DNA of 64,000 nt from an uncultured Holophaga sp. (lineage in GTDB: Bacteria; Acidobacteriota; Holophagae; Holophagales; Holophagaceae): the NCBI GenBank assembly GCA_963664825.1, contig OY761614.1, positions 320,001 through 384,000 of the forward strand. The letters are read 5' to 3'. Numbering within the stretch: position 1 is the stretch's first letter; each line of letters opens with the position of its first letter. Under the pieces are notes generated by a model that was given only the letters and a program-made list of their open reading frames with translations, was not told where the DNA came from and made no database searches. This document shows, piece after piece, positions 9,474-20,815 of this stretch. A program made the translations under genes and the position numbers.

Positions 9474-9653
9474 TCCAGAGTGGGTGGGGTTCACCCCTCA
9501 GCGCTTCGCCGTCCGCTCTTTATTTCCCGCCCCGCACCCGCGGGGCTTTCTCGTGCAGGCTCTTCTTCCCTGTCCATCGTCTCCGTGGACGCCTGCCCCA
9601 GGTGATACACTCGGCGCCAATCCAGGGCTCCCGAGCCCCTCCCAGGCCCCCCC

Positions 9654-10292
9654 ATGAGTCTTCCCATCTGGATCCTCTTCGTGACCGTGGCCCTGGCCGC
9701 CGTGCTCAGTCCGGGCCCCGCCGTGCTGCATGCGATCACCAACAGCATGGCCTTCGGCTGGCGCCGGGTGGTCTTTTCCTCCCTGGGCAACATCCTCGGT
9801 CTGCTGGCGCTTTCCGGTCTGGCCGTGGCGGGCCTGGGCGCCCTCCTCAAGACCTCCCTGGTCGTCTTCTCCGTCCTCAAGCTCCTGGGCGCAGGCTACC
9901 TGATCCTCCTGGGCATCCGGCAGTGGCGGGCCCGAACCAGCGTGTTCACTCAAGGCGATGCCACAGCCCTGCCCGAATCCCTGAGCAACGGCCGCATCCT
10001 CCTCAAGGGCCTGATGGTGGCCTTGACCAACCCCAAGGCCATCCTCTTCTTCAGCGCCCTATTCCCCCAGTTCCTCCGGTCGGACCGGGCCCTTTTCCCC
10101 CAGTTCCTGATCCTCATGGCCACCTTCATGGCCCTCTCCTTCCTGGCCCTGATGGGCTACGGAATGCTCGCCCACACCGCCCGGACTTGGTTCTCCGACG
10201 AACGCCGCTCCACCTGGTTCAACCGCGCCTCCGGCGGGGCGTTCTGCCTGCTCGGCCTCGGCATGCTGAGACTCAAGGCGGCCCGCGCGTGA
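9654..10292 (+). CDS. LysE/RhtB-family amino-acid exporter
   Basis: SPGPA, LKLLGAGYLILLG and LTNPKAILFF motifs. Confidence 0.93.
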   Translation: MSLPIWILFVTVALAAVLSPGPAVLHAITNSMAFGWRRVVFSSLGNILGLLALSGLAVAGLGALLKTSLVVFSVLKLLGAGYLILLGIRQWRARTSVFTQGDATALPESLSNGRILLKGLMVALTNPKAILFFSALFPQFLRSDRALFPQFLILMATFMALSFLALMGYGMLAHTARTWFSDERRSTWFNRASGGAFCLLGLGMLRLKAARA

Positions 10293-14719: not shown

Positions 14720-16402
14720 TCAGACCAACATCACCAGGAGCGCCTGGGCCAGCATGATCTTCAGGATGGTCGCCAGGGGGTAGACCGTGGCGAAGCCCAC
14801 ATTGGGCATCTCGTTCTTGGTCTGCTGGCAGGCGTAGCCCAGTAGCACGGGCTGGGTGTGCATGCCCGCCACGATGCCGAACATCACGTTGAGGGGGATC
14901 TTGAAGAGCTTGTGACCGACCCAGTAGGCGAGGGTATCGGCCAGGGTGGCCACGATCAGGGCGCTCGTCAGGAAGATGGGCAGCCAGGCGATGTTCTTGG
15001 TGAGGATCTGCCGGAAGCCTTCCCCGGAGATGATGCCGATGCCCGCAGCGAAGAGCACCAGCCCGAACTGGCGGATGGTGTGGTTGGCGCTGTAGGGGAT
15101 GTTCCAGATGAAGGGACCAAACTTGTGGTAACGCCCCAGGAGCAGGCCCACCACCAGGGGGCCCCCAGCGAAACCGAGCTTGAATATCATGCCGTGGCCC
15201 AGGGGAAAGGGAATCTGCCCCACCGCCAGGCCGAGGGCCAGGCCCATGGCGAAGGTGAGGAAGGAGGCCTCGGAGAGTTCCCGGTAGCTATCGCCGAAGT
15301 ACTCCTCGATCGCAGCGATATTGCCCTTGGCGGTGGCCACGCGGATGCGGTCCCCCAGTTCCAGCACGGTATCCGCATCGGGTACGAACCAGACATCCCC
15401 CCGACGCAGGCGCGTGATGATGCAGTTGTGCTTCTCCGGCAGCTGCAAGGCCCGCAGGGTGCGCCCGATGACATCATGGCTGCTGACGAAGACCCGGGTG
15501 GAATCGTACTCGCTGATATCGTTTTGAAGGGCGGTCTCCGAGGTCTTCCCCAGGAGGGCCGTGGCGCGCAGCACATCCTCGGGCGTGCCCACCACCATGA
15601 GCAGATCCCCCACCTGGAGGGTGATATCCAGGGGCGCCATGGTGAATTCGGCGCCGCGCTTCAGGCGATCGAAGACCACCTTGCAATTGGCCTGCTCCCG
15701 CAGATCCACATGGGTCTTCCCCGCGCCCGTCTCCAGCACTTCGATGGTGGCCACCACCAGATGGCTGGAGCCCGAACTGTAGCCGTGCAGGCTCGCGGCC
15801 TCCTTCTGGAGATCGACCTTGAAGAAGCGGCGGCTCAGCACCATGGAGAGCATGGGGATCAAGACGCCGACGGGGTAGGCGATGGCGCTGGCCACGGTGG
15901 GCTTGGCGATCTCCATGGCATCGGAGGTGGTGCGCTTCAGGGCCTCAATGACGCCGGCCAGGGCAGGCATGTTGTTGAAGGAACCCGTGAGCAGGCCCGC
16001 GGCGTACTTGCTATCGAAGTGGAACAGCCGCTTGGCGATGACGGCGATGAGGAAGGTGCTGAAGATCATCACAATGGCGACCACGGCGTTCTTCTGGATG
16101 CCCTCCTTGGTGAAGGCGGCCCAGAAGCTGTGGGCGATGGCCAGCCCCATGGCGTAGACGAAGATGGCCAGTCCCAATTCGTAGACGAGCTTCATCTCCT
16201 TGGAGACGTCCTTCTTGAGGGCGGGATCCAGGTCCGGCGCCAACACCACGGCCCCGAGAGCGATGCCCGCAAACAGGATCGAGGCGATGCCCAGGGAGGC
16301 CCCCGCGATCTTGATCTTGCTGATGGGATATCCCAGGGCCACTACGGCGAAGAGCAGCAGCAGCGGATTGTGCGCAAAAAACCACATGACGGAGTGGAAC
16401 AT
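14720..16402 (-). CDS. AspT/YidE/YbjL-family antiporter with TrkA-C domains (paralog 2)
   Basis: ELGLAIFVYAMG, AYPVG, LGFAGGPLVVGL, GMHTQP, ATVYP. Confidence 0.9.
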   Translation of the reverse strand: MFHSVMWFFAHNPLLLLFAVVALGYPISKIKIAGASLGIASILFAGIALGAVVLAPDLDPALKKDVSKEMKLVYELGLAIFVYAMGLAIAHSFWAAFTKEGIQKNAVVAIVMIFSTFLIAVIAKRLFHFDSKYAAGLLTGSFNNMPALAGVIEALKRTTSDAMEIAKPTVASAIAYPVGVLIPMLSMVLSRRFFKVDLQKEAASLHGYSSGSSHLVVATIEVLETGAGKTHVDLREQANCKVVFDRLKRGAEFTMAPLDITLQVGDLLMVVGTPEDVLRATALLGKTSETALQNDISEYDSTRVFVSSHDVIGRTLRALQLPEKHNCIITRLRRGDVWFVPDADTVLELGDRIRVATAKGNIAAIEEYFGDSYRELSEASFLTFAMGLALGLAVGQIPFPLGHGMIFKLGFAGGPLVVGLLLGRYHKFGPFIWNIPYSANHTIRQFGLVLFAAGIGIISGEGFRQILTKNIAWLPIFLTSALIVATLADTLAYWVGHKLFKIPLNVMFGIVAGMHTQPVLLGYACQQTKNEMPNVGFATVYPLATILKIMLAQALLVMLV

Positions 16403-16505
16403 GGACTCTCCACATCGGCACCGAAGTGCATTCCTTGAGGGGGGAGCCGCAGACAGACAACTGGCGGACTCCCGATGCCTTCATGCTAACCCAAGGCGAG
16501 GTCCC

Positions 16506-18155
16506 TCAGCGAATCAGGACCAACAGCGCCTGGGCCAGGATGATCTTGAAGATCATGGCCACCGGATAGCTGGTGGCATAGCCGATGGCGGGCAGATCGT
16601 TCTTGGTTTGGTCGCTGGCAGCGCCCAGCACCACAGGCATGGTCATGGCCCCCGCCAGGATGCCCAAGAGGAGGTTCATGGGGATCTTCAGCAGCTTGTT
16701 GCCCACACCCACCAGGAAGAGACCCGTGACGAAAGTCACGGCGGCCCCCACCAGGAAGAGGGGCATGCCCATGCCCCCCCGCAGATTATCCAGGAAGCCC
16801 ACCCCCGCGATGGTGCCGATGCCCGCGGAGAACAGCAGCAGGCCCAGCTGACGGATGGTGAGGTTGGCACCATAGGGGAAATGCCAGACGAAGCGCCCCA
16901 CGCGGTTCACCTTGCCCAGGAAGAGGGCCATCACCAACGGTCCCCCGGCGAATCCCAGCTTGAAGGTCATGCCCCCAGGAAGGGGGATGGGCAGCATGCC
17001 CAGGGCCAGCCCCGCGGCCAGTCCCATGGCGAAGGTGAGGAAATCCGCCTCGCTCACCTCCCGGTAGGAATCGCCGAAGAGGGCCGTGACCTCCTCGACG
17101 CGCTCCCGGCGCATGGTGATGCGGATGCGGTCGCCCAGTTCCAGGCGGGTATCGGCGTTGGGCACGAACCAGAGATCCCCCCGGCGCAACCGGGTGACCA
17201 TGGCGTCGAAATCCGAGGGCAGACGCAGCTCCGAAAGGGGACGGCCCACCACCGCCGGATCGCTCACGAAGAGCATCCGGTATTCGAAGTCCCCGGCGTG
17301 GCCTTCCAGCTGCTCGATGGGAGAAGCGACGGCCTCTCCCAGGAGGGTCACCAGGGCGTCCAGCTTCTCGGGTTCGCCGATCACCGTGATGACATCCCCG
17401 CTGCGGAGGGCCGTATCCCCCTTGTAGAGCATCAGCTGGCCCTCCCGCAGGATCCGGCCGAAGACCACTTCGCAGTTCTGGCGGGCCACCACGTCCCGAC
17501 GGGTCATACCCTCGGCTGCGGGCTGGGTCACGCGCACCGTGCGGGGTTCCAGCCGCGAAGCGCCGCTCCGGTATTGGGTGAGGCCCTCGGCCTCCTTCTT
17601 CAGATCCACCCGGAAGATGTGCCGGGCGATGAGGATCACCAGCAGAGGCGCGAGTACGCCCATGGGATAGGCGATGGAATAGGCGAAGGCGTGCTGGGAG
17701 AGATCGGCCGCAGTGCCCCCCTGGCCCTTGATGGCCTCCACGGCACCGGCCAGGGCCGGCGCATTGGTGAAGGCGCCGCTGAAGAGGCCGGCCCCGAAGA
17801 AGCGATTCCACCCGAGGAGCTTTGAAATCCCCACGATCAGGAAGGCCCCGAAGAGGATCGCCAAAATGGTGATGGCGGTATTCTTCAGGCCCCTCAGGTT
17901 CATGGCGGCGAAGAAACCCTGGGCGCTGGTGAGGCCCACCGTGTAGACGAACATGGAGAGGCCCAGCAGGTAGATGATATCGGGCAGGGGTTTGATGCCC
18001 GGCAAGCAGCCCAGGCCCACGCCCACGAAGAGCACGGCGGCCATGCCCAGCGAGGCCCCGGCGATGCGGACCTTGCCCAGAGGCCAGCCCAGGGCCACCA
18101 CCAGGAAGAGCAGCAGCAGGGGGCTCTCGTTGAGGATTCGGACCAGTGTGTGCAT
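16506..18155 (-). CDS. AspT/YidE/YbjL-family antiporter with TrkA-C domains (paralog 1)
   Basis: LGLSMFVYTVG, GAFTNAPALA, YSIAYPMG, LGFAGGPL, YATSYP; start could be 18167. Confidence 0.9.
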   Translation of the reverse strand: MHTLVRILNESPLLLLFLVVALGWPLGKVRIAGASLGMAAVLFVGVGLGCLPGIKPLPDIIYLLGLSMFVYTVGLTSAQGFFAAMNLRGLKNTAITILAILFGAFLIVGISKLLGWNRFFGAGLFSGAFTNAPALAGAVEAIKGQGGTAADLSQHAFAYSIAYPMGVLAPLLVILIARHIFRVDLKKEAEGLTQYRSGASRLEPRTVRVTQPAAEGMTRRDVVARQNCEVVFGRILREGQLMLYKGDTALRSGDVITVIGEPEKLDALVTLLGEAVASPIEQLEGHAGDFEYRMLFVSDPAVVGRPLSELRLPSDFDAMVTRLRRGDLWFVPNADTRLELGDRIRITMRRERVEEVTALFGDSYREVSEADFLTFAMGLAAGLALGMLPIPLPGGMTFKLGFAGGPLVMALFLGKVNRVGRFVWHFPYGANLTIRQLGLLLFSAGIGTIAGVGFLDNLRGGMGMPLFLVGAAVTFVTGLFLVGVGNKLLKIPMNLLLGILAGAMTMPVVLGAASDQTKNDLPAIGYATSYPVAMIFKIILAQALLVLIR

Positions 18156-18371
18156 GTTCACCCCCAAAGCCAGGCCTGCCCAAGACAGGATCGGGACGGA
18201 GCGTGCAGGAATGCCGGACCCGTTGCAACCATTTTATCCGACCCCGCCTGCCTCCTTGTCACGCCGCTGTTCCGGGGATCGCCACGCCCTCGAAGCTGAA
18301 GTGTCCCCGGAAGGCATCTTCTTAAGGCGGAAAGGCTGGCGTCTGCCCCGGAAATTTGAAAAGCTGGGTCC

Positions 18372-19361
18372 ATGAGCACAGCCCTCCATCCCCAGAACGT
18401 CATCGCCCTGGTCTGGGATTTCGACAAGACCCTGATCCCGGGCTACATGCAGGACCCGATTTTCGACGAATACCATATCGACGGGGCCACCTTCTGGCGG
18501 GAGACCAACGCCCTGCCCCTCTATCTCCAGCGGGCCGGTGTCCATGTCCACCCGGATACCTCCTACCTCAACCATCTCCTGACCTATGTCCAGCACGGCC
18601 GCATGCCGAACCTCACCAACGCCAAGCTGCAGCAGCTGGGGGCGAAGATCGTCTTCCATCCGGGGCTGCCGGACTTCTTCCAGCGCCTCAAGGAGGAACT
18701 GGCCGCCTACCCGGACGCCGAGCGCTTCGAACTCAGGCTGGAGCACTACATCGTCTCCACCGGACTCAGGGCCATGATCGAGGGCTCGGCCATCCGGCCC
18801 TTCGTGGAAGGGATCTGGGCCTCGGAATTCATCGAGGCGCCGCCCCCCCCGGGCTTCGACCCCGACGAGACGATCCGTCTCGATGACCCGGACCGGGGCA
18901 GGCCCCTCATCCCGGTCCAGGGCATCACCCAGATCGCCGTGGCCTACGACAACACCAGCAAGACGAGGGCCCTCTTCGAGATCAACAAGGGCGCCAACAA
19001 GACCGCAGGCATCGACGTGAACGCCAAGATGGGCGACGAGGACCGGCGCGTGCCCTTCCAGCACATGATCTACATCGCCGACGGCCCCAGCGATGTGCCG
19101 GCCTTCTCCGTGATGCGCCAGAACAGGGGCACGGCCTACGCCGTATACGACCCCAGCAATTCCTTGAGCCTGGAGCAGGTGGATCGCCTGCGCCGGGATG
19201 GCCGCATCGACCACTTCGGCCCCGCCGATTTCCGTCCCGAGAGCCCCACCAGCCAGTGGCTGACCATGCAGGTGCGCCGCATCGCCGAAGGCATCATCGC
19301 CGACAGGAAGACCGCCCTCTCCGCCCGGGTAGGTTTCGCCCCGAGGCATCTGCCGCACTGA
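18372..19361 (+). CDS. HAD-superfamily hydrolase
   Basis: WDFDKTL motif I, IVSTG motif II, KTRALFEINKG, YIADGPSDVP motif IV. Confidence 0.85.
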   Translation: MSTALHPQNVIALVWDFDKTLIPGYMQDPIFDEYHIDGATFWRETNALPLYLQRAGVHVHPDTSYLNHLLTYVQHGRMPNLTNAKLQQLGAKIVFHPGLPDFFQRLKEELAAYPDAERFELRLEHYIVSTGLRAMIEGSAIRPFVEGIWASEFIEAPPPPGFDPDETIRLDDPDRGRPLIPVQGITQIAVAYDNTSKTRALFEINKGANKTAGIDVNAKMGDEDRRVPFQHMIYIADGPSDVPAFSVMRQNRGTAYAVYDPSNSLSLEQVDRLRRDGRIDHFGPADFRPESPTSQWLTMQVRRIAEGIIADRKTALSARVGFAPRHLPH

Positions 19362-19645
19362 AAAGGTGCACTCCCGGTAGTCGCCGACGCAGGAGGCGGC
19401 GTAGAGCTGCGGGATCCAGGCTCACCCGAAGGGTGAACTGGAAACCGCAGCGTCCGGGAGTGCCCGAGATAAAGGTGCACTCCCGGTAGCCAGCGCCGAA
19501 GGCGATGGCGTCAAGCAGCAGGGCATAGGCTTGGGCGCAGCCCAAACTATGCCCTGCTGCGTCCGGGAGTGCCCGAGGTGAAGGTGCACTCCCGACAGCC
19601 CGCCCCCGCAGGGGGTGCGACAAGCCCAAGGACTCCGGGAGGAAC
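19362..19645. repeat. Structured tandem repeat with 109-nt period (two full units and one truncated unit)
   Basis: RAAGGTGCACTCCCG begins at 19362, 19471 and 19580; units 1 and 2 close with CGTCCGGGAGTGCCCGAG; internal hairpins covary. Confidence 0.92.
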
Positions 19646-19666
19646 CTCGCGCCCCGTGCGAATCGG

Positions 19667-20815
19667 CTACTGGAAGTCCACCGCGTATTCCCCGTCCCGC
19701 ATGAGGGGCAGGATCTTCCCGTCCTCCAGGATCAGATCCACGCGCTTCACCTTCACATCGGGCTGGGTCTCGGGGACGTAGACGCGGTCGATGTGGATGA
19801 CGGCGCCGGGACTGGAGAATTGCTTGGGCCCCACTTGGCCCCCGAAGTGCTCGCTGCGGCCGAAGGCGATGTGCAGGCCCAGCTTCTCGTCCAGGAGGAT
19901 CTCGCCGATGGGCTTCAGGCCGAAGGCCGCCAGCACGCCCAGGCCCAGTTCCGCCAGGTTTCCGTAGGCGGGTTCCGCAGCCAGATGCTCGGCTTCGGCT
20001 CTCGAGGCAGGTCCCTGGGTGAGCACTTCCACGGCCTTGTTGTTCTCGATGCGATAGCGCACGATCTCCGTACCGAACTGTACGGGCAGGATGCCGGCAC
20101 TGCGGCTGGGCTCGGTCTCCCCCTCGAAGGGCACGATGTAGGTCTCGCCCGAAGGCAGGTTGCCGGCCACGCCGGGTTGGGGCAATAGGCCGCCGGAGGC
20201 GTGGGCGCTACGGAAGCGCAGATCCAGGTGCAGCGACTCCTCGCCGCCGGGATGGGAGAACTGGAAGTCGGCACCGGTGGCGCGATCCAGGAGGCCCTTC
20301 AGGAATTCCACCCGGCGGTTCACTTCCGTGTAGTCCAGGCGCAGGGCCGGGATCATGTCCTGGCGGAAGCCCGGCATGGTGGCAGCGCGGATGGGATGCT
20401 TCTTGGCGGCCATCTTCAGGGGGGCCGTGGCGGAGAATTCCGTGGGGGCGATGAGGATGGGATGTGTGGCGTAGATCTCCCCAAAGGAAATGGAAGCCCC
20501 AGCGTCCAGGCCTTCTGTCGTCCTGGGCAGGGGGCCGCCCTTGTGGATCCAGCAGCGCTCGGGCAGGTCCCCGTTATTGGTGTGGACATTGGGATAGAGC
20601 ACGAGGTCGGTCTCCATGCCCAGGGAGGCGCGATGGGCCTTGAGTTCGGCCACCCAGGCCTGGGCGATCTCCCGGCGGGCGGCCCAGTCTGCGTTATCCG
20701 GCGACTGGGCGTCAGGTAGATCCACCAGGAAAGCCAGGGCCTTCTCGCCCGCCTGGGGCAGGAAGACCCGCTTCACCAGAGCCACCAGTTCCTCACCACT
20801 CAGCCGCTCTGACAT
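19667..20815 (-). CDS. M29/aminopeptidase-T-like metallopeptidase
   Basis: GNLPSGE, NLAELGLG, LLDEK, LHIAFG and IHID motifs. Confidence 0.75.
   Translation of the reverse strand: MSERLSGEELVALVKRVFLPQAGEKALAFLVDLPDAQSPDNADWAARREIAQAWVAELKAHRASLGMETDLVLYPNVHTNNGDLPERCWIHKGGPLPRTTEGLDAGASISFGEIYATHPILIAPTEFSATAPLKMAAKKHPIRAATMPGFRQDMIPALRLDYTEVNRRVEFLKGLLDRATGADFQFSHPGGEESLHLDLRFRSAHASGGLLPQPGVAGNLPSGETYIVPFEGETEPSRSAGILPVQFGTEIVRYRIENNKAVEVLTQGPASRAEAEHLAAEPAYGNLAELGLGVLAAFGLKPIGEILLDEKLGLHIAFGRSEHFGGQVGPKQFSSPGAVIHIDRVYVPETQPDVKVKRVDLILEDGKILPLMRDGEYAVDFQ

Follow-up and report, generated by a model that had tools for sequence, protein, structure and literature searches.

MITEs are usually read as insertion sequences (IS) that have lost their middle, and any fold that they adopt is ascribed to RNA. 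MIRUs are sense-oriented, GC-rich repeats at gene boundaries, whose tandem arrays end in a partial unit. According to PMC12548453, their insertion sites are start codons, and an internal ORF provides translational coupling. RUP of Streptococcus pneumoniae is a MITE which is proposed in PMC2229807 and PMC3049150 to be moved by IS630-Spn1. The BOX repeats of the same species (PMC3049150) and the REP and BIME repeats (PMC3733652) are two further groups to which the locus described here can be compared.

The locus lies within a window of 64,000 nt (the whole stretch of DNA that was analysed) from an uncultured Holophaga sp. There, copies of a small DNA repeat with a Y-shaped fold are stacked into an array; the repeat is present in part of one bacterial family, the Holophagaceae. 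The array is not unique but a member of a dispersed repeat family, and it can be described as a composite variant of MITE/BOX-like repeats. In the reading that we prefer, and to which we assign a probability of about 0.6, the array is a worn, locally duplicated non-autonomous miniature transposon, the core of which likely folds as sense-strand single-stranded DNA. Like RUP, the Y repeat is short, non-coding, strongly folded and intergenic, with IS-like ends and a target duplication in its shelled sister copies, and one of its shells is of the IS630 type. It departs from RUP in that a single Y core recurs under the ends of two transposase families that are not related to each other, and in a worn form besides; in that 3 bp (TNA) or 5 bp are duplicated at the target where RUP has TA; and in its GC-rich, branched core with loops of the DNA type. 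The shells hold other folded cargos too. A composite build with variable module number, IS-like terminal repeats, strain length variation and nesting with other repeats are shared with BOX, from which the Y repeat is set apart by duplication of whole units, by modules of +21 and +56 nt in arms and tips, and by a strong sense and stop-codon bias. With REP/BIME it shares palindromic intergenic repeats that cluster downstream of genes, and GTAG-like feet in many units. However, Y units are branched and 105 nt long, whereas REP is a hairpin of 20-40 nt with a GTAG/CGTC tag; the foot of the Y repeat is not fixed, and the arrays of the window's subfamily (subfamily 1) that were read are head-to-tail instead of inverted dimers as in BIME. 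Moreover, the two main carriers have no RAYT, and sister copies have DDE target duplications, unlike the REP/RAYT system. Like MIRUs, Y copies are oriented with transcription at gene boundaries (39/41). Unlike MIRUs, they lie behind stop codons, and the window array sits between convergent genes. A search of the open literature returned no paper on Holophaga REPs, on GNA triloops in bacterial single-stranded DNA, or on IS1380 or IS630 MITEs of Acidobacteria; the family is undescribed as far as this search reached, and its novelty may depend on the repeats listed in PMC3733652.

The array lies between two convergent genes, of 329 and 382 aa, as the preliminary description had noted, and fills the gap between their stops (Table 1). 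Units 1 and 2 do fold as a two-hairpin Y with a closing stem (DNA folding z -7.5 and -8.9, with 0/200 shuffles equally stable; RNA folding z -7.1 and -9.2), and the GC/A internal loop and the c-GNA-g tips have the positions reported earlier. Unit 3 alone has no significant fold (z -1.0), while the whole stretch 19359-19669 gave a z of -10.1. A period of 109 nt had been noted, and the spacing is exact here (unit starts at 19363, 19472 and 19581); as a family trait, however, the period did not hold, as it is merely a 105-nt unit plus a 4-nt spacer and other arrays are spaced at about 108-166 nt. Two further points had to be revised. The hairpin of unit 3, first taken for hairpin 1, is instead a 21-nt insert module known from other copies, and the end of the element, first set at 19645, moves to about 19668, since the family tail can be followed by eye into the stop of the convergent gene.

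Table 1. Features of the array and of the genes that flank it (positions in the window).
Feature	Position	Strand	Remarks
Upstream gene	18372..19361	+	329 aa; weak HAD-like match under cut-off
TGA stop of upstream gene	19359-19361	+	anchor of the array
Unit 1	19363..19467	+	complete Y module, subfamily 1; covariance model 115 bits
Unit 1, closing stem, 5' arm	19365..19377	+	pairing in fold prediction
Unit 1, hairpin 1	19380..19400	+	tandem G.A mismatches, c-GCA-g tip
Unit 1, hairpin 2	19406..19451	+	GC/A internal loop (19420-19421, 19437), c-GAA-g tip (19428-19430)
Unit 1, closing stem, 3' arm	19454..19465	+	pairing in fold prediction
Unit 2	19472..19576	+	complete Y module; hairpin 2 a perfect 14-bp stem
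Unit 3, truncated	19581..19641	+	left stem, 21-nt insert module (about 19601-19621), right-stem remnant
Worn 3' tail	19642..19668	+	by-eye homology to family tail and to right end of IS630-type shell
Convergent gene	19667..20815	-	382 aa, no Pfam match; stop codon adjoins tail

A promoter and terminator scan found neither, and no terminator-like T-run was present. In sequencing runs X1 and X2, which come from one sample that is possibly the source of the assembly, one 808-nt contig each spans 19064-19871 with zero differences. Single low-depth contigs from runs X5 and X6, which belong to two other studies, carry a shorter unit 3. At the orthologous locus, an array was present in one of the seven congeners that have the upstream gene; there the first unit is near-identical, the second contains the 21-nt module, and the downstream neighbour of the array differs.

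We then turned to the family as a whole. Under strict filters and with few candidates scored per genome, a covariance model gave 20 matches in this genome and at least one match in 24 of 133 Holophagaceae genomes, one of which (G134) has a locus identical to one in G004 and may not be independent; the other 109 gave none. A first model had detected copies in 8/61 genomes, and the end motifs recur within this genome, with their exact pattern in one of 60 relatives (G004). Outside the Holophagaceae, none of 141 sampled genomes of the phylum had a match to this model under the same settings. A scan of GTDB returned 70 matches, of which 10 were true copies, all from one Holophagaceae MAG; the remaining 60, most of which look like a single coding motif, lacked both a right end and a module in their vicinity. 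Three subfamily-1 loci were recovered from metagenomes. Plasmids gave no match except short chance pieces, and viral contigs gave 0 matches for the junction and core patterns; the 66 and 2 viral matches for the shell-end patterns were not used as evidence.

The covariation anticipated in the preliminary description was found in the relatives. In 20 canonical units, 16 of the 39 pairs change on both sides, a number that was reached in 0/500 shuffles, which ignore kinship, and under a broader model of 53 units, whose alignment was fitted to the model, 33 of the 39 pairs of the 105-108-nt Y fold covary. Template-switch correction of quasi-palindromes during replication can also yield covariation. 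Such correction, together with gene conversion, could have produced the paired changes with no selected function, the DNA-stable loops merely surviving, and the perfect 14-bp stem in unit 2 at a place where most copies are mismatched, the mosaic make-up of the units and the many truncated copies would all fit. We regard this explanation as very unlikely, since asymmetric loops should then vanish, but the GC/A internal loop, like the G and A at the junction, has been retained across four genera while the adjacent pairs change on both sides.

Y units are mostly dispersed as single copies, and truncated copies are common. Their lengths are quantised, mostly at 105-106 nt, then at 126-127 and 162 nt, with 142 versus 163 nt in another subfamily, a pattern that shows arms and tips to take up plug-in modules of 21 and 56 nt. 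Far larger plug-in modules with further GNA-capped branches were seen in L162 and L075 (units of 257 and 247 nt). No Rfam family was matched at its gathering score by the array, the best being the Ruegeria Cis2_sRNA, a faint match (25.4 bits versus 50, E 0.004) that was kept as a lead only, and among seven divergent loci the only Rfam matches were to rRNA and tRNA. The reads of RNA run X15 do not extend over the array and speak neither for nor against its transcription. Given this lack of an Rfam family at threshold and the dispersal of units mostly as single copies, a processed ncRNA array, one of the options raised earlier, is unlikely.

The base pairs favour the plus strand, and the loop types point to DNA. 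In 53 aligned units read on the plus strand, G.T pairs outnumber A.C pairs (69 vs 22). Among the 140 loops of 69 units, which are kin and therefore do not give independent counts, 54 were GNA triloops (41 of them closed by C-G), 9 were c-AAA-g, and GNYA tetraloops outnumbered GNRA by 18 to 3, with 0 UUCG loops. None of these features was seen on the minus strand, and shuffled sequences gave 4 GNA triloops in 875 loops and a GNYA:GNRA ratio of 16:20. RNA prefers GNRA and UUCG loops. In DNA, d(GNA) with C-G closure is unusually stable, and AAA triloops and d(cGNNAg) tetraloops are cited alongside it in PMC3201870. With its GNA and GNYA loops and its lack of UUCG, the fold looks tuned as single-stranded DNA, in line with the plus-strand, DNA-like fold suggested in the preliminary description, and single-stranded DNA of the sense strand is the likely form in which it is conserved.

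We next compared the ends of the units, which define the subfamilies. Subfamily 2 and a subfamily in G019 have longer ends with inverted repeats (shell A). This repeat also forms the ends of complete IS1380-family elements, present in G001 and, with a 5-bp repeat, in G084; the complete IS1380 elements with matching ends, L409 and L308, scored 218 and 222 bits against NF033539 (cut-off 180). Twenty-four Y copies had both shell-A ends, and an exact 5-bp target repeat flanked 18 of these, or 23 if one mismatch was allowed; for both shells, a match between the repeats was among the criteria for choosing the right end, which raises the count. These copies sit on a sense stop in 14 cases and an antisense stop in 6, with neither in 4. 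Twenty further left-end matches to shell A, some of them false, had no scored right end. G019 carries seven near-identical young copies. The IS1380 transposase domain PF13701 was matched in 31/133 family genomes and in 0/5 carrier genomes. The IS4-type transposases of this genome were considered as parents and rejected, as their ends are unrelated. In G088, G092 and G067 (L266, L293-L301), IS1380-type MITE bursts carry different folded cargo, with 48 end matches in G088 and 47 in G092. An IS1380-type Y element also lies inside the left end of a subfamily-1 element (L571/L286, G004:C42, about 9570-9850), a nesting of two subfamilies.

Subfamily 3 has ends that differ from shell A and a 3-bp TNA repeat (shell B). 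These ends match a complete IS630 element, L540 of G034, which is flanked by a 3-bp repeat; its transposase, split by a frameshift, scored 127.5 bits against NF033545 on the C-terminal half (cut-off 100). L540 (G034:C7, about 400-1520) is inserted in a short tandem repeat. The usual target duplication of the IS630 family is TA, whereas that of L540 is 3 bp. The exact 3-bp repeat was present in 14 of 15 shell-B Y copies, which were sense in 10 cases, antisense in 1 and neither in 4; 9 further matches lacked a right end. With the L540 protein as a single query, run without a positive control, 0/5 carrier genomes gave a match. In G111, G084, G023, G025 and G010 (L479-L508, L533-L562), several other cargos lie within IS630-type shells that have 3-bp TNA repeats and can be as short as about 40 nt, and some of these cargos presumably resemble repeats found beside GxxExxY and four-helix-bundle genes.

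Including their shells, Y elements measure 128-285 nt around 105-nt units. The same 105-108-nt fold thus occurs under three end types, two of which match complete IS in relatives, and the complete parent IS were not found in the main carriers tested. The two sister subfamilies are true MITEs. Since one fold has two unrelated ends, and both kinds of end also hold unrelated folded cargos in other genomes, shell and cargo seem to evolve separately.

For subfamily 1 the case is less direct. Its units share the fold of the shelled units under one model. A comparison by eye shows its left end to be similar to the inner portion of both shells, and its tail to be similar to the IS630-type shell at the right end. 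From this likeness, the 5' closing arm of unit 1 is probably what is left, in worn form, of the inner half of a left inverted repeat of the transposon type. At the end of one contig from run X7, an intact shell-B left end is joined to a subfamily-1 stem. Four subfamily-1 copies (L066, L069, L165, L571), among about 36 tails, have CTGA on both sides, a 4-bp flanking repeat that matches neither shell exactly, and a third shell for subfamily 1 is possible. The window array itself has no intact inverted repeat and no target duplication, and no parent IS with subfamily-1 ends was found among 7/21 and 5/12 loci examined. The sisters are thus demonstrated MITEs, while for the array such membership is inferred, given its worn ends, the by-eye nature of the likeness and the lack of a parent among those loci. 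A candidate autonomous copy at G000 3070926 proved to be a deleted copy behind a response regulator, and identical multi-copy matches in G032 and G007, taken as candidate IS, are rRNA operons.

Neighbouring units within arrays were compared to see how they are related. They share the left-stem length variant in 15/17 pairs (shuffle p 0.002) and are identical in 8/17 pairs (shuffle p below 1e-5). Units 1 and 2 of the window have the same ends and show 32 differences over 106 columns. Each full unit of the window is less close to its neighbour than to 15-18 of the 19 other units, and hairpin 1 of unit 2 is the same as in 3 distant copies. These patterns would be explained by local duplication followed by exchange of arms with distant copies. 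In G000:C1:947300-947950 (-), the 3' end of a gene, which we take to be serS, is duplicated about 274 nt apart, and after each copy a subfamily-1-like left end runs into a different purine-bulged hairpin repeat. Directly behind a degenerate subfamily-1 start in L338 (G000:C1, about 729400-730900) lies an IS4-family element with a 10-bp repeat.

The position of the copies relative to genes was strongly skewed. Among 41 first-in-array subfamily-1 loci (12 of them in this genome, 26 in G004 and 3 on metagenome contigs), 39 begin -1 to +7 nt from a same-strand stop of a long frame, and none is antisense. The other two (L102 and L061, both in G004) lack such a stop; there the reading frame may continue into the element and stop inside it. 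Random intergenic placement would fall near a stop in about 1% of cases, an underestimate because the gene call was crude (2320 genes, 79% coding). In both shells the target repeats contain a stop triplet, mostly at a real gene stop, and the stop-to-element distance of up to 7 nt in subfamily 1 is close to the 6 nt of intact shell B. A short target motif does not account for the preference, as stops make up about 6% of harmless TNA sites by crude calls that miss genes. Placement at stops may belong to the transposases or to survival and not to the Y, since the complete IS1380 element in L308 also appears, by eye, to sit on a stop. The sense:antisense ratio was 14:6 and 10:1 in shelled copies and 39:0 in the worn subfamily, a bias for which the displaced non-template strand and the transcript are both possible causes. 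Both orientations were seen by eye on both replichores, with no visible leading/lagging bias.

Shell-less sense copies were found in the 23S-5S spacer of 11 genomes from four genera (one copy partial) and after tRNA-Ile in 3 genomes, with the rRNA/tRNA context confirmed by Rfam for three loci. In 3 genomes such copies sit between what we take to be nuoA and nuoB. The 23S-5S spacers of this genome (G000, near 1124050 and 643610, -) contain what appear by eye to be internally deleted Y remnants, where relatives carry a full Y element at the same site. Placement behind stops and in rRNA spacers is also what would be expected if the fold were kept as RNA, that is, as a 3'-end stabiliser, a processing signal or a modulator of translation termination, and both the sense bias and the RNA folding scores given above agree with this, as does long retention in the 23S-5S spacers with compensatory change. 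MITE transcripts can affect mRNA stability (PMC2229807). We nevertheless hold an RNA role to be quite unlikely: the loops are GNA and GNYA instead of GNRA or UUCG, 7 shelled copies are antisense, neither an Rfam family nor a terminator-like T-run was found, the 23S-5S copy of this genome is apparently internally deleted, and 109/133 family genomes have no match.

The same shell-less copies, in rRNA spacers and after tRNA-Ile and all in sense, bear on a further explanation, in which mobility resides in the bare Y core. Folded as a single strand, the core would serve, in the manner of REP, as substrate of an HUH/RAYT-type or other structure-specific enzyme and would insert into single-stranded DNA exposed where ribosomes do not follow transcription, as after stops and in rRNA operons, the IS shells being later captures. 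The DNA-type loops, the internal loop kept in 52/53 units (chosen by a model that contains the loop), the GTAG-like feet in many units, and 0/41 antisense subfamily-1 loci with no visible leading/lagging bias speak for it. The search for a partner enzyme gave a different picture. An HUH/RAYT partner had been proposed in the preliminary description, but PF01797 (Y1/RAYT) was not found in this genome or in G004, the congener richest in copies. Although Y1/RAYT genes occur in 14/37 relatives, the 30 Y1 loci fetched from relatives held no subfamily-1 array in a search for subfamily-1 end motifs. Reverse transcriptase, likewise suggested as a co-occurring gene, was not matched in this genome (PF00078, 0). 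GIY-YIG domains gave 2-3 matches in each of five genomes, carriers and non-carriers alike; one match in G004 lies near a shell end. No Y-enclosed gene was present in the loci read, the foot varies between subfamilies, and the youngest copies have DDE-type target duplications. On balance we consider movement of the bare core by such an enzyme unlikely.

Under the preferred reading of a worn miniature transposon, DDE transposases acting in trans would have spread the Y core, inserting it at targets that contain TGA or TAA. The window subfamily would have arrived in the same way, its ends decaying later, and the array would have grown by duplication in place, after which hairpins were presumably swapped with distant copies by recombination. 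Sense copies at gene ends would survive best, probably because the folded strand there is the non-template strand or 3' untranslated RNA. DDE transposases act on double-stranded DNA. Movement by DDE transposases therefore leaves the DNA-type loops and the internal loop unaccounted for, and the shell-less copies in the rRNA spacers of four genera could mean that the bare core predates the shells and had another way of moving in the past. A bolder and rather doubtful extension is that the Y core, far from being passive filler, is a portable single-stranded-DNA device with plug-in tips, moved between unrelated DDE shells, which would direct or license insertion at sites of exposed sense strand directly behind stop codons and stable-RNA ends, or would recruit a host replication or repair protein to such sites. 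If true, this would amount to a mobile-element layer nested inside MITEs, with targeting linked to translation termination.

The unusual traits of the family are thus that a single fold occurs in two unrelated shells, that its loops are of the DNA type and that it is placed tightly at stop codons. For the last of these the family offers a testable case, as complete parent transposases are available (L409, L308, L540). Arrays of this kind also call for caution in annotation, because in Holophagaceae genomes, rRNA spacers included, they look like ncRNA or CRISPR-like loci. Elsewhere in the window, positions 14720-18167 (-) hold two ordinary tandem AspT/YidE-type antiporter genes (PF06826 with TrkA-C).
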